64,000 nucleotides of DNA, from positions 4,505 through 68,504 of the forward strand of contig SKQU01000026.1 in NCBI GenBank assembly GCA_007118855.1, written 5' to 3'. The position numbers were made by a program, and so were the translations under genes. The stretch is from Spirochaetaceae bacterium (lineage in GTDB: Bacteria > Spirochaetota > Spirochaetia > DSM-27196 > SLST01). Position 1 is the first letter of the stretch. Each line of letters starts with the position of its first letter. Shown here piece by piece: positions 1,902 to 28,219 of this stretch. Under the pieces are notes generated by a model, which ran no database searches, had not been told where the DNA came from, and worked only from the letters and a program-made list of their open reading frames with translations.

Positions 1902-4481
1902 ATGCTAGAGATATTCGATCAGAACCCACAGAGTCGCGTGTTTCACGTGGACCGCGAGTGCTACGTGGTCTACCTCGGATCCCACTGGGAAGACTTCAAG
2001 CCGTTCCTGCGACTGGGAACCTCGCCCGAGCTCCCGCCCGAGCTCCCGCCCATCGTATCCACGATCGTCGTTCCGGACGCGCTCACCGGGAACCCGCTGG
2101 ACGAGCCTGCATGCCTCGCCGGCGATGCCACGCCGGATACGCACTATGTGGGTGATCTGGAGACGGTCGAGCACATGAAGAGCTTCGTCGGTCAGCACAC
2201 GATCCCCGTGGAGGCGATCGAAGCGATCGATCACGAGGACGACGACGGCAAGCACGTGCTCGTCTACTACTATAAGGACGGCAATCTGAAGATCAAGTTT
2301 CGCAGGAACGAGATCTTCGACCTCAGACGCCGTGAGAAGCTCGACGGACACTTCATCGCGCGTGCCCAGGATGCCAAAAACGAATATGGACGCGGGCCCT
2401 TCAAGTTCCCCGGCGATGCGTATCAGCTGCCCGGCTTCATCGTGCTGCGCGGCGCCCCCTACCTCGTAGCGCGCGGAGAGCTCGCGGCGCTGCATCTGAC
2501 CGACGACTACTTCTTTGCGCTCTCGGCGGCCGGTATCGACGCGGACAGGGTATCGACGGTGCAGGCCGAGGAGGCGGACGCCGCGCTCATCCGGTTCTTC
2601 AAGCGCAGTCGTACCCGGAACCGGCTGGTGCGCATCTCCTCGCCTCGCGGTGAGCGGGTTCGCCAGGCATCAGATCTCTTTCCGGCCAACTCGTTGCCTC
2701 CGTTGAAGACGATAGTTCTGGAAGGCCATGGCGGCGTCTTTGATTTCCACAAGTTCCGCGTGACGCGGGCGTCGGGACGGTTCGAGGCCTCGCTCGACGG
2801 GCTCGACGGGCCGATCGTGTTCGGGTCCGCCGCAAAGAAGACACGCGACGGTTCGTACGTGGTCGACGCGACCGCCGGGTCACTCCTGTTCGTCCGGTCA
2901 AAGACGAGCCATCCGCTCGTCGAGGGAACGCTCTACCAGTTCGGCGGGGTCCCCACGAACGACGACGCGAGTCGTTTTCTGCCCGAGAAGAACTACCCCT
3001 ACCGTGATCTGCTCTCCCAGGCCGAGAATACGCTGCTTGCGCAGCTCGAATACTTCTTCAACGAGCTGTTCGGCGGCCGCGACACCGCGAAGGTGATCCG
3101 AACGCTGAAGGGGCTCGATCCTGTGAAGGCGATCGGCAGGGACGACGGCTCGATCCACCCGATCGTTGAGGTCGTGCTTCACAACTACAAGGAGTATGCC
3201 CGGTACGTTCGCGACCATGAAGCGGAGGTCGGTCGCGGGGCGGAGGCCCTTCTGGGTCTGCTCGACCGTCACCAGGTTGGCAGGGCGGATGCCCCTGCCA
3301 ACCTGCCTCTTGTGGGTGAGATCTGCCGCGATGGCGAGCGGGAGTACCTCTTCTACCGCCTTGCCGCACGGATCACCGGCGACCGCTACGCTCATGCGGA
3401 ACAGGTTGCCGCGAAGGTTTACGCGCTCCCGGCCGTTGATTTCGCCGCCGAACGTCAGCGTCTGGTGGACCTCATCGCCGGGCTTGCGACGCCGGAGCAG
3501 ATGGACGAGGCTCGGTTGCGCCGGATCGCCGCGGCGGGAAAGAAGAAGGCTGCCGACCGACGCGCGGGCGAGTCCGAGAAGGAAGGCGCGGGCGGTTCAG
3601 AGCAGGATGCTCACGGCCGGGGAGACGGGACGACACCAGCGGGTGCACGGGAGCGGGGCGGGAAAGCCGCACCTCGCGGGAGAGCCGCCGGGGGCCGAGG
3701 CGCGGGCACCCGACGCAGGACCGGACGGCGCAGATGGGTGCTTCCGACCGCGGTGCTGCTCGTCCTGATCGCGGCGCTCCTGGCGCTGCTTCTCACCGGC
3801 ACGATCCCGAGTCCCTGGTTCGATCCCGTGGAGCCGGCGGCGGTGACCGACGACCCCACGGTTCCGATGCCCGACCCGGACGTCGTCGACCCGGACCTGA
3901 GGGACCCGGATGTCGACCCGGATGTGACCGATCCGGACCTGGTAGATCCGGACGCCGTCGTTCCGGACGCCGTCGATCCGGATGTGGAGCCTCGCCTGCC
4001 CGACGGATGGCCCGAGGAGTCTCTCCCGGCGATTCAGGCGCTCGAGCAGACGCCCGGTGTGACGATCACCGAAACCAGCGTGATCGGTCCGGGCGGGATC
4101 GAGATCACCCTGCGTGACATCATTGACCTGGTCAACCGAATCGCGACCGACAACGGGTATGCGCCCATGGGCGTGATTGACCCCGACCGGCCCGACCCTG
4201 ACTGGATCTATCCGGGAAATCTCTTTGTACTCCCGGACGGCACGCGCTACACTGTAGTGCAAGGTGATACGCTGTGGCACATCACCGTTCGGTATATGGT
4301 GGCTCGTTTGCGCAGCGACTACGACCGGTACACCCGTCTCGTCGCCGAGTACGAAGATGAAGCAACCGGTGAAGCGCGTCGGACCGAGATCGTTGAGTTA
4401 CTGGCGGCGCTCGGTGCTGCTTCGCACACCGAGAATTTCACCCGACTGGTCGAGGAGACCCTTGATCGCTGGGAAGAATAG
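1902..4481 (+). CDS. Uncharacterised bitopic membrane protein: ~590-aa cytoplasmic region, Arg/Gly-rich linker, one TM helix, D-P-D repeat spacer, C-terminal LysM-like segment
   Basis: 859-aa ORF with ATG plus SD. One hydrophobic helix (WVLPTAVLLVLIAALLALLLTG) preceded by an RRRTGRRR positive-inside cluster. (V/L)xDPD repeats follow. LysM-like strings IYPGNLFVLP and YTVVQGDTLWHITVRY sit near the C-terminus. Confidence 0.7.
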   Translation: MLEIFDQNPQSRVFHVDRECYVVYLGSHWEDFKPFLRLGTSPELPPELPPIVSTIVVPDALTGNPLDEPACLAGDATPDTHYVGDLETVEHMKSFVGQHTIPVEAIEAIDHEDDDGKHVLVYYYKDGNLKIKFRRNEIFDLRRREKLDGHFIARAQDAKNEYGRGPFKFPGDAYQLPGFIVLRGAPYLVARGELAALHLTDDYFFALSAAGIDADRVSTVQAEEADAALIRFFKRSRTRNRLVRISSPRGERVRQASDLFPANSLPPLKTIVLEGHGGVFDFHKFRVTRASGRFEASLDGLDGPIVFGSAAKKTRDGSYVVDATAGSLLFVRSKTSHPLVEGTLYQFGGVPTNDDASRFLPEKNYPYRDLLSQAENTLLAQLEYFFNELFGGRDTAKVIRTLKGLDPVKAIGRDDGSIHPIVEVVLHNYKEYARYVRDHEAEVGRGAEALLGLLDRHQVGRADAPANLPLVGEICRDGEREYLFYRLAARITGDRYAHAEQVAAKVYALPAVDFAAERQRLVDLIAGLATPEQMDEARLRRIAAAGKKKAADRRAGESEKEGAGGSEQDAHGRGDGTTPAGARERGGKAAPRGRAAGGRGAGTRRRTGRRRWVLPTAVLLVLIAALLALLLTGTIPSPWFDPVEPAAVTDDPTVPMPDPDVVDPDLRDPDVDPDVTDPDLVDPDAVVPDAVDPDVEPRLPDGWPEESLPAIQALEQTPGVTITETSVIGPGGIEITLRDIIDLVNRIATDNGYAPMGVIDPDRPDPDWIYPGNLFVLPDGTRYTVVQGDTLWHITVRYMVARLRSDYDRYTRLVAEYEDEATGEARRTEIVELLAALGAASHTENFTRLVEETLDRWEE
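3867..3992 (+). repeat. In-frame degenerate Asp-Pro-Asp repeat tract (MPDPDVVDPDLRDPDVDPDVTDPDLVDPDAVVPDAVDPDVEP)
   Basis: Reiterated gacccggac / gatccggat units in the DNA, immediately after the TM helix of the 859-aa protein. Confidence 0.8.
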
Positions 4482-4507
4482 ACCGAAGGAGGAGAGAAGG
4501 GTTTTAG

Positions 4508-4535
4508 TTGTTAACGCTGGAAAGTGTATTATACT
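4508..4535 (+). promoter_or_regulatory. Candidate promoter for the cfpA-like gene (TTGTTA-N16-TATACT)
   Basis: AT-rich patch in the 125-bp intergenic region. TTGTTA at 4508-4513 and TATACT at 4530-4535. Confidence 0.35.
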
Positions 4536-4557
4536 TAGGCCGGGGAGAACGAGAGCC

Positions 4558-4581
4558 GGGCAGAGCGTAGTGCTTCTGCCC
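4558..4581 (+). promoter_or_regulatory. 5' leader stem-loop upstream of the cfpA-like gene
   Basis: GGGCAGA(GC)gtagt(GC)tTCTGCCC gives 7+2 bp with one bulge. It lies between the candidate -10 and the AGGAAGGAG SD. No U-tract follows, so it is not a canonical terminator. Confidence 0.35.
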
Positions 4582-4606
4582 AAAACCACCACAGGAAGGA
4601 GTTAGT

Positions 4607-6583
4607 ATGTCCGATATCCCAAGGAGTCCAAACGTATTTCACCCTCGCAAGCCGTCAGCTGTTGGGTCACGCAACAGTCTGGCCCAGGAAGGGCGAAGCC
4701 AGAAGGACGAGTACAAGCAGGTCATCGCTGAAGAGGTGGAGAACATCCTCAAGGACATCCAGGTCAAGCTGCCGAACGAAGTGCTCGAGCAGCTCGACGT
4801 CATGGGTGGACTGAAGGAGAAGATCTACAACTACTACAACCAGAATTACCAGAACATGTTCAACCGGTACATCGTGACCGCTGAAGATGAGATGGTGAAG
4901 AAGGTTCGTAACTTCATCGACAAGGAAGAGTCGAAGGCCCTCGCGCGGTATTCTCCCAAGGAGATCGCCGAGATGCTCGACCAGATCGGTGGGGCGGACA
5001 AGTTCAACACCGGCGAGATCGAGAAGTCGATGGTCAACATGTACGGCCATCTCCAGGGGCACATCCAGCGAGGGATGAACGATCTCGAGAACGACACCAA
5101 CGCGCTGCTGCGGCAGAAGGCCGACGTCGGTGCCTTCATTCGCGGCGAGAACGCCTATTCGATCGTGAAATGCGCGTTCAAGGACAACCTCCACAAGCCG
5201 AAGAACGTCAGCGACGTGAAGCTCTCGGTGAACATTCTCGACTCCGAGCTCATAAGCCCGATCTTCCAGTACCAGGTGACCGTGGAGTTCCTGATCAAGG
5301 ACCAGATCGCCAAGACGATTACGACGCTGATCGAGCAGGAAGTCGAGCGCTACCAGGACGAGCTCGTTGACGAGGGCAAGGACGAGCTGACCGACAGCGA
5401 GATGATTTTCGAGAAGATCAAGCGGGTTCCGAACTACACCGACGACGATGCGGAGGACGAGAGCTCGAAGCGCTACACCTTCATGGCGAAGGAACTCGTC
5501 GAGAAGATCGAGGGGCTTCGCGCGGAGATCGATCCCAAGGAGTTCGATCCGCTCAACATCCGGGAGAACATCAAGAAGATCATCGACGCGGAGAACATTC
5601 GCAACCGCGGGTTCAACACGGCGATCAACTCGCTGACCTCAATTCTTGACACGTCGAAGATGGGCTATCAGTACATCGAGAACCTGAAGAACGCCCGCGA
5701 GCTCATCGTACGAGAGTACGAGGACACGGACGTCAACAACCTGCCGGACGAACGTTACCAGATGCGCCTGAAGTACTACGACCAGGAGCAGCTGCTGAAG
5801 GAGCGCGACGCGTACGACAAGCAGATGGAAGCGTTCAAGAACGAGATCACGCATGCGTGGGACGTCGTTCGCGCTCTCTACGACAGCAACAAGAGCGGCA
5901 TGCGGGTCAACGACTTCGACGACGTTGCGAAGCGGATGCGCGGTCGGGTTCGGCGTGCAAAGCAGGAGAGCGGAGAGCCGCTGTACGAGGAGATCGAGAA
6001 GACCTGGAACGAGATTCTGCGCATCAAGGCGGAGGAGACCGACGTCGAGCGGCTCAACAACACCTACCTGCACGAGAAGGCTCTGCTGAAGAAGATGCTC
6101 AACCGCTCCCAGGAGACGGTGGCGACGGTATACGGTCATCTCAATCCCAAGGAGCGGGTCGAGGTGGACAAGCGGATCCACTTCCTGCGGCGCGAGTTCG
6201 AGGAGTTCGACTACCTGATCAACCCCTACCATATTCAGCCGGGCCTCATCCTCGACGTGGACATCACCAGCATCAAGCGGAAGAAGTTCACGCTCAACGG
6301 GATGGCGAACGTGCTGAACGAGTTCCTGCACGGTGTCTCCAAGGGCTTCCAGGATGCGGCCTTCGCAACCTTCAAGCGCCGACGCAGCACGGTTCGCGAA
6401 GACCTGAACCAGAGTTTCATGTCCACTGTTGACCAGGAGATCACGGCTCAGGTCCCGGAGGCACAGCACTTCGAGTCGGCAACCGATGACGAGGAGTCGA
6501 GTGATGCCGGAGTGAAGGGCAAGGCTGATGTGACGCCGTCGCGGCGCCGCCGGAAGTCCTCTGACGATCTGCAAGAACTGTAG
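4607..6583 (+). CDS. cfpA: CfpA-like cytoplasmic filament protein (K/E/N-rich, coiled-coil-prone)
   Basis: 658 aa, similar in size to treponemal CfpA as I recall it. Long charged heptad-like stretches. Strongest SD in the window (AGGAAGGAG). Located two genes upstream of ppdK, the order I recall for T. pallidum. No alignment was run. Confidence 0.55.
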
Positions 6584-6586
6584 GGT

Positions 6587-7561
6587 ATGGAAAACACACT
6601 GAATCTTCTGTCGCGCAGGGCCGGTTTCAACACCGCCCTGCGCCACTTCAAGAGCGTCAACGCGTTTGCCGAAGACGTCGGCGAGGGGTACAACCTCGCC
6701 GATGTGCTCAACGAGGCGCTCGAGGACGGGTCGCTTGAGCGATACCAGGTCCGCGCTGTTCTGAACGCGCTCCTGGTCGAGAAGCTCGGTTACGTCACCC
6801 GCGCTCACAATCTCGAGGCCACGATAGACGACGCAGAGCCGATCATTGAAGCCCTTTCGAAGTGGGGGAAGATCCACGTCGTACTGTGCTACTACCATCC
6901 CCAGGCCGGTCTGTACGTCATCAACCCGGCGAACCCGGCGCATTGGGACGGTGTGTTGCCGCTTGTACGGGACGAGTACTTCCTGATGTTGGTGGGTCCG
7001 GCTACCGGGTCCCCGGATCACAGGACGCTTGAACGGGCGGCCGACGACGTTCTGAAGGTGCTCTACGGAAAGAGCGTCAAGGATGATTCCGCCTACCGTG
7101 GCAACCGCCGCGTTCTGAAACCTGCAGCCGATATACCGAGCTTTGACGAGACGCAACCGGCGCGCGCGGTTACATCCGCCGTGACGACGGAGGCTCCTGC
7201 TCAGCCCGCGGCCCAACGCGGCGGCAGCAGAAAACGGATAACCCCCAAGTATTCGGTCGTGGTGACGAACGAGCTCTTCCACAACGGGAACGTGGAGGCC
7301 TGGAAGAAGATCATTGCGAGCTTCCAGGCGAAGTACCCCGGACTCGACGTCCTCATCTGGTACGAGAATGAACGGATCAACGACATCAACTCACTGTTCA
7401 AGTGGGGGAAGGTCAAGCATGGTGTTCCCATCATGTTCAGCGTTGCGGGCGATGAGATCAAGGATGTCCGCAAGCTGCAGCGCTACCTCTACGAGGGGGC
7501 AAGCCCACGATTCGAGGCATTCCTCAAGGGCGGCTACGACCAGGTGCTGGACCTATTCTGA
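6587..7561 (+). CDS. Uncharacterised two-domain protein tightly linked to the cfpA-like gene
   Basis: 324-aa ORF. ATG lies 3 nt after the cfpA-like stop. Balanced composition. Two globular-looking halves joined by an Ala/Pro/Thr/Gln linker (TSAVTTEAPAQPAAQRGG). Confidence 0.7.
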   Translation: MENTLNLLSRRAGFNTALRHFKSVNAFAEDVGEGYNLADVLNEALEDGSLERYQVRAVLNALLVEKLGYVTRAHNLEATIDDAEPIIEALSKWGKIHVVLCYYHPQAGLYVINPANPAHWDGVLPLVRDEYFLMLVGPATGSPDHRTLERAADDVLKVLYGKSVKDDSAYRGNRRVLKPAADIPSFDETQPARAVTSAVTTEAPAQPAAQRGGSRKRITPKYSVVVTNELFHNGNVEAWKKIIASFQAKYPGLDVLIWYENERINDINSLFKWGKVKHGVPIMFSVAGDEIKDVRKLQRYLYEGASPRFEAFLKGGYDQVLDLF

Positions 7562-21938: not shown

Positions 21939-22661
21939 CTACAGGTGGAAGATCTTGCGAAACTCGCCGTGTCGCTCCCGCAGTTGCTTGTTGATGAAGA
22001 GGATGAGGAAGAAGGCGGAGAGCGTACAGGCGAAGGCGATCAGCGACCAGCTCACCAGGAGCTCGCCGCGCGCCCGGTTGACCAGGAACTCGATGCCCAC
22101 GACTTCGAGTCCGGCCGCAAGGATGCCCGTCGCGATCTTCTGGAGCACGTTGAGCCCGAGCCTCTTCATGGCCAGGACGGATGCGCCGATGAGCGCCGCC
22201 GTCAGAAGCGTCATGGGCAGTCCCAGGTCCAGAAACCAGTTCTGCTCGCCCACCGTGAAGTTCAGCGCAAGGAGGAATCCGGCGATGATCGCCGTCTGCG
22301 CGACGAGCAGAAGCGCCGGCCTGCGCAGCAGGACGATGACGGCAACGGTCGCAGCATAGACGCTGCCGATCGCGAGCAGGGGAAGAATCGACCACGAGAG
22401 CGTGAAGCCGGACGCGATGTCCGCGGCGAACACGATGACACCCGTGGTGAAGGCGATGAGCGACACCATCTCGAACAGCCAGATCTTCGCGTTGCGCACG
22501 GTTCTCCGAGCTTCACTCGTCAGCTCGGTCTCCGGCCGCAGGAGCGCACCGGGTCTGTCCGCTACTCCCTCGTCGCCGTTCCCGGCGACCGGCAGGCCGC
22601 ACAGCGGGCAGCGGTCGCTGCCGTCTTCGATTCTGACCCTGCAGTTTCTGCACTCGTTCAT
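21939..22661 (-). CDS. Zinc-ribbon membrane protein (N-terminal CxxC-N10-CxxC, ~6 TM helices)
   Basis: 240 aa. MNECRNCRVRIEDGSDRCPLCG followed by multiple hydrophobic helices. The ATG overlaps the upstream stop (ATGA). Confidence 0.7.
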   Translation of the reverse strand: MNECRNCRVRIEDGSDRCPLCGLPVAGNGDEGVADRPGALLRPETELTSEARRTVRNAKIWLFEMVSLIAFTTGVIVFAADIASGFTLSWSILPLLAIGSVYAATVAVIVLLRRPALLLVAQTAIIAGFLLALNFTVGEQNWFLDLGLPMTLLTAALIGASVLAMKRLGLNVLQKIATGILAAGLEVVGIEFLVNRARGELLVSWSLIAFACTLSAFFLILFINKQLRERHGEFRKIFHL

Positions 22662-23950
22662 GAGTCACTCTCCGATACGAGGATGTCCACACCGTCGGCG
22701 GCCACCTTCCGGAAGAACTCGCGCTCGACGGTGCGATCCTCGATGACGCTGCCGATCGTGATGGACAGGTTATTGGCGTAGCTGATTACCGCGCAGCCGG
22801 TCTTGTACGCGGCGTTCGGGCCGAGCACGACTCCTGCCGACTCCACGTAGGGTTCCAGCCCGTCCGGCAGGATGAATCTGCCGAGATTGGACACGACGCC
22901 GGAGTAGCTGCGGTCGCCGATCGTCCGGCGCAGGTGACTGAGGTAGAGGTCCTTGGCTGCTCGCGGGACGACTCTCACGAAGGAGCTGCGCTCGCCGCCG
23001 ACGTTCCTCGAGATCTGACGCGAGAGCTCCGCCGGGTCGAGCTGGATGTTCATCTGGTGATGGACGCGACGCACGATCCTCTCAAACGACCACTCGCCGA
23101 GTCCGAGGTCGATCTCAGGGGAGACGAAGAGCGAAAAGTTCCGCATCGTCTGCGACGGGTGGATCCGGCGCATGTTGACCGGCACTTCGATCCGGATGAT
23201 CCTGTGACGCGGCTTCAGCAGTCCCGCCGCCTGCTCGTCGAATGCCGCCTTGATGGCGTTCATGTAGGCCGCAACGAGATACTCTGTGAGCGTCGCTCCG
23301 TAGCGTCTGGCCGTCTGAAGCGTTACGTCGACCGGCATCTGCGCGGTCACGGTCCGATACCTGTTCATCAACGGGACGCCCGGGAGATGGTAGGCGGGTT
23401 CGAGATCCGGAGCCCCGGGCACTCCGTGGCGATAGTGCTCCTGAAAGGCGTCTTCGAACTCGGCATCCGGCACCGGTTCTTCGGGCCGCATCAGCAGGGC
23501 CCCCGGTTCCACCGGTTCGCCGAGCCGTCGCAGGTAGTCGACGATGAGCGATCCGAGGAACCGCATGGCCCCGTACCCGTCGGTGAGGACGTGGGAGAAG
23601 TCGGCGGCCACCGTTGCGCCGTGCGCATAGACGTGCAGCAGCTGCTCGCCTCTGCGGTGCAGCATGATCGGCGTCACCACCGGAGCGGCAGGCAGCGGTG
23701 CGAGGCGCACGGGCTCGGTGTGTCGCTGCAGGTAGTACCAGAAGAAGCCCCGCCGCAGATGCACCCGGTAGTATGGAACGCGCTCCATGACGGCGCCGAG
23801 CGCGTCCTGAAGCGTCCGGGCGCGGACGGGCTGCCGAAGCGTCACCGAGACGCGAAACACCGCCGGCGCGGCGTCGTGCCGGGTGGCGGGGTAGATCTTG
23901 GCCGCGTTGTCGAGGCGCAGCCAGTCCTCGGTAGCGGTTGCGTTGCTCAT
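22658..23950 (-). CDS. HxxxD-motif acyltransferase (condensation / alcohol-acetyltransferase-like superfamily)
   Basis: N-terminal WLRLDNAAKIYPA string and catalytic-type HVLTDGYG motif. The ATG at 23950 is preferred over the track start 23989, which overlaps the upstream gene. Confidence 0.65.
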   Translation of the reverse strand: MSNATATEDWLRLDNAAKIYPATRHDAAPAVFRVSVTLRQPVRARTLQDALGAVMERVPYYRVHLRRGFFWYYLQRHTEPVRLAPLPAAPVVTPIMLHRRGEQLLHVYAHGATVAADFSHVLTDGYGAMRFLGSLIVDYLRRLGEPVEPGALLMRPEEPVPDAEFEDAFQEHYRHGVPGAPDLEPAYHLPGVPLMNRYRTVTAQMPVDVTLQTARRYGATLTEYLVAAYMNAIKAAFDEQAAGLLKPRHRIIRIEVPVNMRRIHPSQTMRNFSLFVSPEIDLGLGEWSFERIVRRVHHQMNIQLDPAELSRQISRNVGGERSSFVRVVPRAAKDLYLSHLRRTIGDRSYSGVVSNLGRFILPDGLEPYVESAGVVLGPNAAYKTGCAVISYANNLSITIGSVIEDRTVEREFFRKVAADGVDILVSESDS

Positions 23951-23969
23951 GTCCACCACAAAGGTACCG

Positions 23970-24563
23970 TCAGAAGCGTGCCGCCTCAAGCAGGGGCGTC
24001 AGCGGATCATGGCGCAACACGAGGAAGTAGAAGAGGGTGGCGAACCACCCGTGCAGCAGTCCGACCATCCAGAGGTTGCGCGTCCTGAAGAAGATGAGCG
24101 TCGTTGCGGTGCCGAGGAAGAAGGTGGCGATCATCAGCTCGGTCTCCGGAACGTGGACGGCGCTGAACACGAGTGCGGCCACCATGACCACCACGAACTC
24201 GGGTGTCCGCTCGCGCATCAGCGCCATCAGGTTGTCGGCGAGCAGCGCGACGACGAGGAACTGTTGAACCAGTCCCCAGGCCGGATACAGGAGGAGCAGC
24301 AGCGCGAGGTTCCAGTTGACCAGCGCTTCGCCCGAGATCAGCGCGTATCCGACGCAGAATCCCCCCCCGGCCAGGAAGGCGAGTCCGCTCAGCACGGCCG
24401 CCTCCCGCAGACCGGCGTGGCGGAATCCCCAACGCCTCACGACCGATTCGTCGGCCTTGTGGCGCAGCATCACGTAGGCGGCCCAGAAGATGATCGCACC
24501 CACGGTGTACGGCAGCTGGTACTCGAGCCAGTCGGTGAAGACGAACTTCCCCGCCGCGGTCAT
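23970..24563 (-). CDS. CPBP/Abi-family intramembrane protease homologue with a degenerate catalytic motif
   Basis: Polytopic. FSAVH and LLHGWF motifs are present, but the usual EExxxR position reads QQFLVV. Start chosen at the internal ATG (MTAAGKF). The start is uncertain. Confidence 0.55.
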   Translation of the reverse strand: MTAAGKFVFTDWLEYQLPYTVGAIIFWAAYVMLRHKADESVVRRWGFRHAGLREAAVLSGLAFLAGGGFCVGYALISGEALVNWNLALLLLLYPAWGLVQQFLVVALLADNLMALMRERTPEFVVVMVAALVFSAVHVPETELMIATFFLGTATTLIFFRTRNLWMVGLLHGWFATLFYFLVLRHDPLTPLLEAARF

Positions 24564-24695
24564 CGCGGCTGCGCAGAGCTCAAAGGCACGGCCGCGCGGG
24601 GATTCGCGCAGGCTCGGAAGCTGGATGTGTCGCACGAGTGCTCCTGGGCGGCAGCATACCGGAAAGGCCGCAGGGTATCCATGGACGCCGAGGTC

Positions 24696-24724
24696 GTGAC
24701 ACCATCGACCGAGTCGACTATGAT
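24696..24724 (+). promoter_or_regulatory. Candidate promoter GTGACA-N17-TATGAT
   Basis: GTGACA at 24696-24701 and TATGAT at 24719-24724 with an exact 17-nt spacer, 15 nt upstream of ATG 24740. Confidence 0.45.
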
Positions 24725-24739
24725 AGCCCGACATTCGGT

Positions 24740-26695
24740 ATGCGGATTTCCAACATCAACACCTACTACGAGTATCCGGGAGACAGCTCATTTGCCCAGC
24801 GGTGCGCCGAGTACCGCGATCTGACGCTGGCGTCTCCCGCGGACGGACCCTTTACCGAGCTCATCCGACTGATCGAGGCTCGTATGCCCGATCGCAATCT
24901 GCTGCTCGACGCCGCGCAAGGGGTTGAGGACCGGATCGACGGATCGGGATTGCTCCTCCACGGAATCATCGCCGTTCTTGGGAGGTTCCCCGAGCCGGCT
25001 GACGCCGGGCGCGATCTGATCGACGTCGAGGTGCGTGAGCGGCTGCGCGACTCCGTTCTGGGCTTCCGGTACTGGCCGGACGAGCCCGGCGGCGACACGC
25101 TGTGCAGCTGGATCGAGAGCAGCCAGATCGCGTTCGCCGCCGCGGCGTACCTTGCCGGCCAGCTGTTTCCGGAGGATCGCTTCGGGAATACCGGGCGCAC
25201 CGGACGCGAACAGATGAACCGGTTCCGGCCGCGCGTGGAGCGGTGGCTCGATCTTCGTTTCCGAACCGGATTCAGCGAGTGGCTGAGCGGACAGCCGTAC
25301 GACGAGAGCCTCGCCGCACTGCTCAACCTCATCGAGTTCGCGCATGACCCGAAGCTCGTGCGTGCGGCGACCATGGTAGCCGACACGGTCCTGCTCGACG
25401 TCGTGCTCAACCACTTTCGCGGCGTCTTCGGCTGTACTCACGGGCGCACCGTCGACTGCCGGCCGGGTCCAGGAGCGTATGAGCGCATGGGCTCGACGAT
25501 CCGGCTCGTTGCGGGTACCAACCGGTACCGGGTGGGTGACCCCGGCGCGTCGCTGCTCTCGGTGAGCACCCGGTACAAGGTGCCGGCGGTTCTCGCCGCG
25601 ATCGCGGCGGACGCCGAGCGGCCGGAAGTGGAGAATCGTCAGCGCATGGGCATCCGGGTCGACGAGGCCGACCAGTGGGGGCTCGGCTTCCGCTCGCTCG
25701 AGGACGGAATCGTCTTCCTCGGTCTCGGGGCCTGCCTGCACGAGCGGACGGTCGGGCTTACGCTTCGAGTGCTCGACGAGTACCGCCTCTGGGATCACCC
25801 CTTCTTCGCACCGCTTCGCCGCCGCCGCGCGCTCATCGCGCTCGCCCGGGGGCTCGGACTGCTGCGGCCGCTCGTTCGACGTCTGGAGAAGAGGCTGACG
25901 AGCACGGCCCGCGAGGAAGTGAACGCGTACACCTATCGGACTCCTGACTACATGCTGAGCTGCGCCCAGGACTACCGGTCCGGCTACGGCGCCGATGCCC
26001 AGCATCTGTGGCAGGCGACGCTCGGGCCCGATGCGAAGGTCTTCCTCGCGCCTCCCGGTGGCCGTGACGAGCGGTTCGAGGTGCTCGGAGACGCCGAGGC
26101 GATTCTCCCGCGCGCGGTGCAGTACAAGAACGTGGTCATCTGTCACGTCCGGGGTGAGCCGTCGGTATGGTTTGCGGGGGCGGCCTTTGACGAGATAGAG
26201 GATGTGCCCGGTTGGCTCTGTGCTCGACGGGGCTCAGGCTATCTTGCCCTTTGGGCGCAGCGCCCCTGGCAGCAGCAGGCAGGCGACGGCTGGGAGCCGG
26301 GCCACATCACCGTCCCGGGCGCCTCTGCGATCCTGATCTGCGTCTGCGGCCGTGAGGTGACGCACGGGTCTTTCGAGAGCTTCGTCAGGGCGATGGCGGG
26401 AGCCCCGGTAGAGGTGAGCGGCCGCGGATCGCGCGAGCGTGTTGAGATCGATCTCGCCCCGCACGGACGGATCTCGCTCGGCCGACGGGGGCCTCTCACG
26501 GTGGGCGGATGGCAGATGCCGATCACCTCGCACGTTCACGGCAGCCCCTATCCGGCGGTTGAGGGATACCGGCGCTACGACAACCCGTACGTGGGCGCCG
26601 AGTTTCCGGCGAATGCGGTGCGGATACGGTGCGCGGACGAGATGCTCGCGCTCAACTGGCGTGACCAGTCCCGTTCGGCGAGCTCGTTTCTGTAG
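24740..26695 (+). CDS. Uncharacterised 651-aa cytoplasmic protein
   Basis: Long ORF with balanced composition and no signal peptide. The track start is GTG 24638. ATG 24740 lies downstream of a good promoter. The helix-rich N-terminal half and beta-rich C-terminal half are an impression only. Confidence 0.65.
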   Translation: MRISNINTYYEYPGDSSFAQRCAEYRDLTLASPADGPFTELIRLIEARMPDRNLLLDAAQGVEDRIDGSGLLLHGIIAVLGRFPEPADAGRDLIDVEVRERLRDSVLGFRYWPDEPGGDTLCSWIESSQIAFAAAAYLAGQLFPEDRFGNTGRTGREQMNRFRPRVERWLDLRFRTGFSEWLSGQPYDESLAALLNLIEFAHDPKLVRAATMVADTVLLDVVLNHFRGVFGCTHGRTVDCRPGPGAYERMGSTIRLVAGTNRYRVGDPGASLLSVSTRYKVPAVLAAIAADAERPEVENRQRMGIRVDEADQWGLGFRSLEDGIVFLGLGACLHERTVGLTLRVLDEYRLWDHPFFAPLRRRRALIALARGLGLLRPLVRRLEKRLTSTAREEVNAYTYRTPDYMLSCAQDYRSGYGADAQHLWQATLGPDAKVFLAPPGGRDERFEVLGDAEAILPRAVQYKNVVICHVRGEPSVWFAGAAFDEIEDVPGWLCARRGSGYLALWAQRPWQQQAGDGWEPGHITVPGASAILICVCGREVTHGSFESFVRAMAGAPVEVSGRGSRERVEIDLAPHGRISLGRRGPLTVGGWQMPITSHVHGSPYPAVEGYRRYDNPYVGAEFPANAVRIRCADEMLALNWRDQSRSASSFL

Positions 26696-27610: not shown

Positions 27611-28219
27611 ATGAGCGATTCCAGGGGCGACTCTCTCGAGCGGCTGCGGGAACACGTGATTGATCAGCTGTCCACCGGCTACTCGCGCGACTTCCTGAGC
27701 GAGGAGGAGTTCGAGCAGCGGCTGGAGACCGCAACGGCCGCGGACCGGCACGCCGAGCTGCGAAGCCTGATCGTCGATCTTCCACCGGCCGGCTCTCCGA
27801 ACCCGCCTGCCGTCTCCGGCGAGTCGGCGGCTGCCGACGGTCGCCTCGAGCGGTTCGCGATTAACCGGGCTGAGGTCTCAGCCGAGTCTTCGCTCATCGC
27901 GGTGTTCTCCGGAGCCGATCGCAAGGGCGTGTGGGAACCCCCGAGGACGTTGAACGTCGTGGCGATCTTCGGGGGCAGCGACATAGATCTGCGGGAGGCG
28001 CGCTTTCCTCCCGGCGGGCTCACGATCAAGGTGGTCGCGATGTTCGGAGGCGTGGACATCATCGTTTCCGAGGGGACCAATGTCGAGGTGAGCGGGGCCG
28101 GGATCTTCGGCGCCTTCGAAGCGGGGAAACGGAAGTCACCGGCGATCCCCGGGGCGCCCACCGTGAAGGTGGAGGGCGCCGCGATCTTCGGTGGCGTGGA
28201 AGTCAGATTCAAGGGGTGA
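27611..28219 (+). CDS. DUF1707-like N-terminus plus LiaF-like C-terminal domain protein
   Basis: 202 aa. N-terminal RLREHVIDQL..GYSRDFLSEEEFEQRLETATAADRHAELRSLIVDLP pattern. C-terminal repetitive beta-strand motif (AIFGGSDIDL, AMFGGVDIIV, AIFGGVEV). Confidence 0.6.
   Translation: MSDSRGDSLERLREHVIDQLSTGYSRDFLSEEEFEQRLETATAADRHAELRSLIVDLPPAGSPNPPAVSGESAAADGRLERFAINRAEVSAESSLIAVFSGADRKGVWEPPRTLNVVAIFGGSDIDLREARFPPGGLTIKVVAMFGGVDIIVSEGTNVEVSGAGIFGAFEAGKRKSPAIPGAPTVKVEGAAIFGGVEVRFKG

Follow-up and report, generated by a model that had tools for sequence, protein, structure and literature searches.

A conserved acyltransferase–DUF6320 gene pair with a facultative Glu-less CPBP companion: a putative membrane-docked acylation module

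Three adjacent genes on the minus strand of a 64,000-nucleotide stretch of DNA from a Spirochaetaceae bacterium (contig SKQU01000026.1 of assembly GCA_007118855.1; the whole stretch is referred to here as the window) are the subject of this report. All three run in one direction, in the order CPBP, AT, DUF6320, and they encode a Rce1-like membrane protein of the CPBP family, a soluble acyltransferase-like enzyme (AT) and a zinc-ribbon protein with six transmembrane (TM) helices. The last two recur together in genome after genome, and this pair is the centre of what follows. The features of the locus are:

23970..24635, minus strand: gene for the CPBP/Rce1-like protein, a QQ-type polytopic membrane protein (221 residues from the GTG at 24635, the NCBI call)
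24261..24266, minus strand: codons for Q124-Q125 in CPBP motif 1 (QQFLVV against EExxxR), from the sequence and its invariance in relatives
22658..23950, minus strand: gene for AT, a 430-residue HxxxDG acyltransferase-like enzyme, predicted to be soluble (open reading frame and predicted fold)
23576..23593, minus strand: HVLTDG, the putative active-site motif of AT (H120, D124, G125), from its invariance in the alignment
22658..22661, minus strand: ATGA stop/start overlap of AT and DUF6320, from the sequence
21939..22661, minus strand: gene for the DUF6320 zinc-ribbon protein with six TM helices, 240 residues (Pfam PF19845; AlphaFold2 (AF2) model)
22599..22652, minus strand: zinc ribbon C4xxC7-N10-C18xxC21 of DUF6320, from its invariant cysteines

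A gap of 19 nucleotides (nt) separates the CPBP stop codon from the ATG of AT at 23950, and the ATGA shared by AT and DUF6320 apparently couples their translation. An earlier annotation made from the letters alone (the sequence-only reading) had reported three tightly packed, co-directional minus-strand genes with an overlap between the last two, and the sequence confirms this. The end coordinate given there, 24563, falls 72 nt short, and the omitted part encodes the first TM helix of the CPBP, which is conserved in relatives; the open reading frame (ORF) stays open beyond the GTG at 24635 up to an ATG at 24734, and the real start possibly lies further upstream. Assignment by hidden Markov models (HMMs), the check proposed in that reading, bore out the families it had named for the membrane proteins: the CPBP matches PF02517 (Rce1-like) at 30.9 bits against a cut-off of 22.4, and the third protein matches PF19845 (DUF6320) at 35.4 bits against 29.9. 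AT belongs to no Pfam family. None of the three proteins has a match in NCBIfam, apart from a sub-threshold CPBP-permease match of the CPBP, and PADLOC gave no defence-system match for them. The closest relatives are metagenome-assembled genomes (MAGs) of Spirochaetales and Spirochaetota. Because it recurs across phyla, the arrangement of the trio is far beyond chance.

In a scan of one genome per species, AT was encoded in at least 594 species-level genomes from at least eight phyla, its carriers including Spirochaetota, Bacteroidota, Cloacimonadota, Fibrobacterota, Aegiribacteria, Clostridia, Lentisphaeria and MAGs labelled Heimdallarchaeota. Among the cultured Bacteroidota, Chitinophaga, Flavihumibacter, Adhaeribacter, Thermophagus, Marinifilum and Cesiribacter carry it; culturable carriers include the strains C. 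ginsengisegetis DSM 18108, F. fluminis RY-1 and T. xiamenensis DSM 19012, and, outside this phylum, Bacillus cereus FORC_047. The pairing was counted over 83 AT loci, four of which end at a contig end and leave 79 assessable; DUF6320 lies directly downstream on the same strand in 76 of the 83 and in 77 of the 79. The seven misses comprise the four contig ends, a gene split by a run of 100 N (L049), a remnant (L037) and L082, the only locus that truly has no DUF6320. The spacing from the AT stop to the DUF6320 start lies between -17 and +37 nt in 70 of 75 pairs, 19 of which overlap. AT and DUF6320 are thereby shown to be an invariant core that has been inherited as a unit across at least eight phyla. 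Plasmids carry the pair as well, at 28–31% identity: megaplasmids in B. cereus and B. thuringiensis, and plasmids in Anaerotruncus and Subdoligranulum.

Some copies of the pair deserve mention in their own right. At L037 (5977-7374, a Chitinophagaceae MAG), an apparent in-frame deletion has removed almost all of DUF6320, so that the C-terminus of AT is fused to the DUF6320 tail (..KKMFHV); this is the only copy reading HILTDA, and a GDSL hydrolase adjoins it. On the conjugative megaplasmids pFORC47_1 of B. cereus (L170, 162-6967) and pMC319 of B. thuringiensis (L172), the pair is preceded by a GntR regulator, the ATPase and permease of an ABC transporter, an alpha/beta hydrolase and a DUF4097 'toastrack' protein, and the DUF6320 gene of pMC319 is annotated as a 'putative small multidrug resistance protein'. 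Five contigs assigned to MAGs of Candidatus Heimdallarchaeota or an 'uncultured archaeon' (L034, L042, L045, L056 and L064, with AT at about 6001-7260) carry the pair, at 35–37% identity to the AT of the window; these could reflect either the horizontal transfer of a bacterial membrane-lipid enzyme into Asgard archaea or a binning error.

Counted from its ATG, AT has 430 residues, with HVLTDG at residues 120-125 and WLRLDNAAKIYPA at residue 10. Its family comprises at least 855 proteins at E<=1e-3 (among 8000 scored candidates), and its relatives bear source names such as 'hypothetical', 'NRPS condensation-like' and 'alcohol acetyltransferase', the last being also the PGAP label of the B. cereus homologue. 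H120, D124 and G125 are invariant in all 31 sequences of alignment A1, which reaches down to 44% identity, as are an N-terminal W..LDNAA.I.P block, TMRNFSL (268-274) and N355-L-G357. The HxxxDG motif is present at 82 of the 83 AT loci, the exception being the HILTDA of the decayed locus L037.

No Pfam, NCBIfam or PDB sequence match was found for AT, and searches of the PDB with the single sequence and with a profile gave noise or nothing, so the assignment of its fold rests on the AF2 model (pLDDT 85.4, pTM 0.87). Searched against the PDB with Foldseek, this model returned 257 matches at E<=1e-3, and all 50 of those listed have the CAT/condensation fold. The condensation (C) domains of nonribosomal peptide synthetases (NRPS) come first (TomBC, E 9e-18), followed by AzeD (TM-score 0.67), PapA5, TRI3 and the mannosylerythritol-lipid (MEL) acyltransferase, and the matches to C domains, PapA5, TRI3 and the MEL acyltransferase have E values of 1e-15 to 1e-17 and TM-scores of 0.58–0.67. 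At the level of the predicted model, it is established that AT has the two-lobe fold of the CAT superfamily (condensation/PapA5/BAHD). The only Pfam resemblance within the AT family is to AATase (PF07247); it is weak, extends to 12 of 31 members with a best E of 1.1e-5, and is absent for the AT of the window. The Condensation model PF00668 has no match even at E<=1 in the 31 members, nor do the WS/DGAT models PF03007 and PF06974 at E<=1 in the family. The N-terminal LD motif and SNLG are, on our assumption, reminiscent of the PLSPxD and SNVPGP motifs of WS/DGAT enzymes.

AT is predicted to be cytoplasmic and soluble because it has neither a signal peptide nor a hydrophobic segment (maximum KD19 1.27). 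The sequence-only reading had described a soluble 430-residue enzyme with a condensation-type HVLTDG, and each part of that description holds, the fold in the AF2 model. Residues 10-21 are the most conserved segment of the protein and yet have the lowest confidence in the model (pLDDT 40–53), as might be expected of a segment that stays disordered until a partner or substrate binds.

DUF6320 consists of an N-terminal zinc ribbon, an acidic linker of about 25 residues, six TM helices and, at the C-terminus, a basic tail whose last residues are FH. Its AF2 model (pLDDT 89.1) places helices at residues 49-83, 92-110, 115-137, 142-168, 172-198 and 205-238, and has no fold match in the PDB (best Foldseek E 3.1). 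In a set of 65 diverse family members, the four cysteines of the zinc ribbon, W90 and W205 are invariant, W142, P149, S206 and F238 are nearly so, and there is no conserved charged or polar intramembrane residue; the zinc-ribbon motif is present in 75 of the 76 copies at AT loci. Counts of lysine and arginine per loop predict that loops 2-3 and 4-5 and the C-terminal tail are cytoplasmic, and this topology in turn places the zinc ribbon in the cytoplasm and the three conserved tryptophans at the outer interface. The six helices and the positive-inside pattern thus agree with the cytoplasmic CxxC-N10-CxxC ribbon on a protein of about six TM helices that had been read from the sequence. A profile search of 1.84 billion representatives gave 1315 clusters of DUF6320 at 50% identity. 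Nearly all of the best 150 representatives listed are stand-alone proteins of about 230–270 residues, and none of these 150 is a fusion of AT and DUF6320, the 573-residue P0388 being left out.

The CPBP of the window belongs to a subfamily without the glutamate pair of motif 1. It has about seven predicted TM helices with the N-terminus inside, judging by the positive-inside pattern of its loops, and all 18 aligned relatives match PF02517. Residues 124-129 read QQFLVV where the canonical motif 1 is EExxxR. The glutamine pair is present in all 120 database relatives listed and is invariant in alignment A3, and the arginine of the motif is replaced by a hydrophobic residue. The invariant columns are W51, W69-G70, Y117-P118, W120-G121, Q124-Q125-F126, F157, H161, L167, W189, G192 and H195-G196; no acidic column of alignment A3 is invariant. 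Motif 2 is kept as FSAVH (157-161), in which F157 and H161 do not vary, and aligns by hhalign with the FSIVH of a CPBP from Enterococcus, the canonical comparators being CPBPs from Enterococcus plasmids. Motif 3 (HxxxN/D) is incomplete: H195 is invariant, and the asparagine is replaced by A199 (HGWFA against the canonical HGFYN). Since the profile-profile alignment pairs FSAVH with FSIVH and HGWFA with HGFYN, motifs 2 and 3 are taken to be homologous to those of canonical CPBPs. The retained FxxxH and histidine motifs had been seen by eye before, and the loss of the motif-3 asparagine is an addition to that observation.

The register of motif 1 calls for more care, as the local hhalign alignment stops short of it. 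The two proteins enter the Pfam profile at the same position, 3, which corresponds to residue 108 of the window CPBP and residue 95 of the Enterococcus CPBP, and QQ and EE each lie 16 residues past that point; this equal offset supports the equation of QQ with EE. A gapless backward extension of the hhalign alignment would instead pair EE with V128 and V129. Judged by sequence, there is no candidate catalytic Glu at motif 1 in the QQ-CPBP subfamily, whichever register is taken. An intact EE, which would have overturned the by-eye alignment of the sequence-only reading, is not present, and the equal offset speaks for that alignment. Given QQ in place of EE and the lack of an invariant acidic residue, the QQ-CPBP is probably not a glutamic protease, and we lean towards a non-proteolytic role for it. 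The profile of the subfamily found no match in the PDB, and a made-up CPBP consensus used as a query for Rce1 also found none.

The association of this CPBP with the pair can be read from either side. A CPBP gene is adjacent at 20 of 86 AT loci, and a metagenome scan from the CPBP side found the module adjacent in 23 of 60 informative QQ-CPBP loci. The trio is found in three gene orders: CPBP, AT and DUF6320 in one direction in Spirochaetota, Aegiribacteria and Fibrobacterota; AT and DUF6320 converging with CPBP in Bacteroidales; and DUF6320, CPBP and AT on two metagenome contigs (L103, 2852-5680, and L147, 2-2039), where the trio has been reshuffled while staying together. Thirteen solo QQ-CPBPs are bordered on either side by 1.5 kb or more without AT or DUF6320 (L113, L117, L122, L129, L133-L137, L145, L150, L157 and L169), and no recurrent partner gene was found at the solo loci. 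The link between the CPBP and the module is real but facultative. The three genes had been proposed as a unit whose co-occurrence across genomes should be examined; a conserved unit does exist, its invariant core being the pair, and it is not an obligate trio.

Clues to function come from the flanking genes, for which 76 upstream and 70 downstream neighbours of AT loci were scanned with Pfam. The immediate upstream genes are enriched for esterase-type alpha/beta hydrolases, and the downstream genes are variable. When family-specific HMMs were applied within 1.5 kb of AT at 115 loci, an esterase or lipase was found at 28, belonging to four unrelated hydrolase families. Those of the Esterase_PHB/Abhydrolase_2 type lie upstream and co-directional in Bacteroidales; Abhydrolase_3 proteins (HSL/Say1-like) occur in two arrangements in Chitinophagales and Cytophagales; the Hydrolase_4/DLH type is found in the B. 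cereus group; and GDSL lipases are seen in Subdoligranulum and at L037. The clearest lipid-metabolism context found for the pair is L171 (4042-7842, Anaerotruncus colihominis plasmid NZ_CP094683.1), a tight co-directional run of Abhydrolase_3, AT, DUF6320 and a lipid kinase of the DAGK_cat/YegS family, in which the Abhydrolase_3 gene overlaps the AT start by 4 nt. Abhydrolase_3 was considered as a conserved fourth gene and ruled out: the neighbours from Chitinophagales and Anaerotruncus share 31% identity over 108 residues, and the two groups are not close orthologues, which indicates independent recruitments. We would argue that such repeated recruitment of analogous hydrolases reflects a functional coupling to ester hydrolysis. 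Adjacent CPBPs and adjacent esterases never coincide (both at 0, CPBP at 20, esterase at 28 and neither at 38 of 86 loci; Fisher p=2e-4, without correction for shared ancestry).

Taken together, these observations lead us to propose a membrane-docked O-acyltransferase system with a hydrophobic, probably lipid, acceptor and with the CPBP as a non-proteolytic partner or a substitute for a deacylase, a proposal that we regard as having an even chance of being right. Its parts differ in strength. We consider it likely that AT is an active acyltransferase and that DUF6320 is its obligate partner; a lipid-like acceptor and an ester product are, in our judgement, evenly poised. In the proposed mechanism DUF6320 would serve as an anchor or adaptor, and neither as an enzyme nor as an ion-coupled transporter, that recruits AT to the cytoplasmic face of the membrane, with the invariant but poorly modelled N-terminal WLxLDNAAKIYP segment of AT as a candidate docking element. 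The His-Asp dyad would then move an acyl group, probably from acyl-CoA, to a hydroxyl group on a hydrophobic acceptor that is embedded in the membrane and is most likely a lipid, and so form an ester. The QQ-CPBP might be an optional third subunit whose task is to present the hydrophobic substrate, in the manner of LnsB with LnsA. Alternatively, it may remove the acyl group, the role that esterases and lipases would have in other lineages; that it might stand in for an esterase is suggested by the fact that the two are never together at AT loci. The whole could form an acylation/deacylation cycle whose logic is comparable to that of yeast Atf2/Say1. A bolder version, in which AT-DUF6320 is the core of a widespread, undescribed lipid acylation/deacylation cycle in the FCB group, Spirochaetota, Bacillota and some Asgard-labelled MAGs, with DUF6320 as a docking subunit of new fold and the QQ-CPBP as a non-canonical intramembrane hydrolase or substrate chaperone interchangeable with soluble esterases, is rather doubtful.

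Several observations weigh against the proposed O-acyltransferase system. The esterase counts ignore shared ancestry, and about five or six independent events would account for the association; at the 38 of 86 AT loci noted above, CPBP and esterase genes are both missing from the vicinity. Several esterases of the Bacteroidales appear to be secreted, and AT is cytoplasmic. The module in the window itself has no esterase neighbour and sits among sugar-metabolism and housekeeping genes. On the CPBP side, 37 of the 60 informative QQ-CPBP loci have no adjacent module, and the function of the CPBP may be independent of the pair. The acyltransferase of LnsAB, on which the partner role is modelled, has a different fold and acts outside the cell.

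Some of these same points would be expected if the CPBP were a mere neighbour with an unrelated role of its own and only the AT-DUF6320 pair a functional unit. The 37 loci that lack an adjacent AT or DUF6320, among them the 13 with clean flanks, and the 66 of 86 AT loci without an adjacent CPBP argue in this direction. However, it is a single CPBP subfamily that lies beside the pair, in three gene orders and several phyla; the gaps are tight or overlapping in the lineage of the window (L085, L002); and an adjacency of 23 in 60 is a very high rate for one specific partner, so we think a mere neighbour unlikely. Much the same low standing goes to O-acylation of an envelope glycan or polyprenol-linked precursor, in which AT would acylate the sugar of an undecaprenyl-linked intermediate on the inner side of the membrane while DUF6320 holds or flips the substrate. 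The combination of an HxxxD enzyme in the cytoplasm with a polytopic partner in the membrane would suit such chemistry, as would the binding of isoprenoid-modified substrates by Rce1-type proteins, and glycosyltransferases of families GT1 and GT4 account for 3 of the 76 upstream neighbours. Yet the pair is not accompanied by any recurrent gene cluster for polysaccharide, O-antigen, capsule or teichoic acid, DUF6320 lacks the conserved polar or charged intramembrane residues expected of a flippase, and the neighbours that do recur are esterases and lipases and, once, a lipid kinase of the DAG-kinase family.

A sub-variant of the proposed system, in which AT acetylates exogenous hydrophobic alcohols such as steroids and terpenoids, as yeast Atf2 does, and DUF6320 aids the release of the ester for detoxification or export, draws on the fact that the sole Pfam resemblance of the family is to AATase, the Atf1/Atf2 family, that neighbouring esterases match Abhydrolase_3 and Say1_Mug180, that yeast is known to run an Atf2/Say1 acetylation cycle (PMC4076087), and that the B. 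cereus plasmid pair lies near a GntR regulator and an ABC transporter. The AATase matches are weak, however (best E 1e-5), with none for the AT of the window; the Say1 match (1.9e-14) is far behind that of the generic Abhydrolase_3 (1.5e-40); and many carriers are free-living sediment or soil taxa with no consistent association with efflux pumps. We therefore hold detoxification to be improbable, about as much so as the glycan alternative. Least probable by far is a peptide or bacteriocin-type system, the direction hinted at by the bacteriocin-immunity link drawn in the sequence-only reading, in which AT would N- or O-acylate a secreted peptide and the CPBP/Abi protein provide processing or self-immunity. 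CPBP/Abi proteins are indeed linked to bacteriocin immunity and peptide maturation (by family annotation, and in the MroQ and didemnin examples), and condensation-fold enzymes can acylate peptides. No precursor-peptide, ABC or peptidase exporter, or NRPS, polyketide synthase (PKS) or carrier-protein gene recurs among the 146 flanking neighbours, though; the catalytic Glu pair is missing from every member of the CPBP subfamily; and from one lineage to the next the pair is surrounded by different, unrelated housekeeping genes, without a PADLOC match. The earlier suggestion of acylation of a lipid, glycan or peptide thus narrows, on the basis of the recurrent esterase and lipase neighbours, to lipid-like ester chemistry as the better fit, with peptide and glycan losing ground.

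The surroundings of the module in the window differ from those in other lineages. An AraC regulator, rhamnose isomerase, FucU, RNase PH, a ParA-like ATPase, a GH2 beta-galactosidase and a PEP-utilising enzyme are its neighbours there, and these sugar-metabolism and housekeeping genes are not kept beside it elsewhere. Divergent from the CPBP gene lies an ORF of 685 residues (24638-26695, plus strand; 651 residues in the NCBI call), which has no Pfam, NCBIfam or PADLOC match and does not recur beside the module in other lineages. A DUF1707/LiaF-like_C protein is encoded near the module both in the window (27611-28219, plus strand) and in a 62%-identical relative (L002, 4582-5229), a proximity that is probably lineage synteny and not a functional link. 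Further away, three consecutive ORFs of 859, 658 and 324 residues without a Pfam match (1902-7561, plus strand) have a G+C content of 0.57–0.60 against about 0.66 and a strong positive nucleotide AT skew; this segment may be foreign or lineage-specific DNA.

The AT-DUF6320 pair is widespread and yet undescribed, and the AT family is without a Pfam model of its own. If the proposed system is real, it would amount to a hitherto unrecognised means of holding a condensation-fold acyltransferase at the membrane, and DUF6320, whose fold has no counterpart in the PDB, would gain a role. Further weight would be given to the idea, now gaining ground, that many bacterial "CAAX proteases" do not act as proteases, and a new class of acylated lipids could come to light in the membranes of Bacteroidota and Spirochaetota. 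The cultured carriers, such as Chitinophaga, Flavihumibacter, Adhaeribacter, Thermophagus and the B. cereus plasmids, make the hypothesis directly testable.

In comparison with known systems, AT shares a CAT-like fold and the HxxxDG motif with PapA5 (1q9j), WS/DGAT, BAHD/TRI3 (3fot), the MEL acyltransferase (8jos) and Atf1/Atf2. Such free-standing condensation-fold acyltransferases are soluble and act on hydrophobic alcohols or lipids; unlike them, AT shows only 10–16% identity to their sequences and its loci have no PKS, NRPS or carrier context, and we know of no free-standing condensation-fold acyltransferase with a zinc-ribbon partner of six TM helices. A text search of the literature found no paper mentioning DUF6320 or PF19845, and one for COG4908 and PF07247 returned nothing relevant to bacteria. 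In Bacteroides, the lipoprotein N-acyltransferase Lnb is a DUF4105 protein with a periplasmic NlpC/P60-like domain on a protein of five TM helices (PMC11573676); none of the three proteins matches it, and the module was ruled out as the Bacteroidota lipoprotein N-acyltransferase.

For the pairing of AT with an esterase, the nearest logical analogue, at the level of analogy, is yeast Atf2/Say1, a sterol acetylation-deacetylation cycle in which an AATase-type acetyltransferase and an HSL-type esterase act on a membrane lipid alcohol (PMC4076087). The esterase neighbours of the bacterial pair match the same Pfam families (Abhydrolase_3/Say1-like). However, the likeness does not go beyond the family level, unrelated hydrolase families take the place of this esterase in other lineages, the module of the window has no esterase neighbour, and DUF6320 and the CPBP have no yeast counterpart.

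Like the Rce1/CPBP proteases, the QQ-CPBP is polytopic and keeps FxxxH and the motif-3 histidine. There are precedents for CPBPs acting as partners and not as proteases, namely SpdC/LyrA with SagB and SpbR with SpsB, from which the window CPBP differs in that its putative partner is an acyltransferase module and not a glycosidase or signal peptidase. The nearest functional precedent, again by analogy, is LnsAB of Staphylococcus aureus, in which LnsB is a CPBP with a degenerate motif 1 (C167, Q168) that is required for acyl transfer by LnsA and is non-catalytic, no CPBP motif residue mattering for its function (PMC13559823). LnsA is a secreted protein whose Cys-His fold is of the NlpC/P60 (LRAT-like) type; it forms a cap over LnsB at the outer face of the membrane and takes its acyl group from phosphatidylglycerol (PMC13559823). 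AT, by contrast, has a predicted condensation/CAT fold with His-Asp and no signal peptide, and probably has an additional obligate partner in DUF6320, which LnsAB lacks; moreover, lnsA and lnsB are not adjacent, unlike the genes of the window. The statement in the sequence-only reading that no system of this composition had been described accordingly stands, in view of the literature, NCBIfam and PADLOC searches, for the composition as a whole, and is qualified by the partial precedent of LnsAB (PMC13559823). What the two systems have in common is an acyltransferase together with a polytopic CPBP whose motif 1 is degenerate, a putative partnership in the case of the window, and, if our proposal is correct, the module would join LnsAB as another, independent example in which an acyltransferase works together with a catalytically degenerate CPBP.

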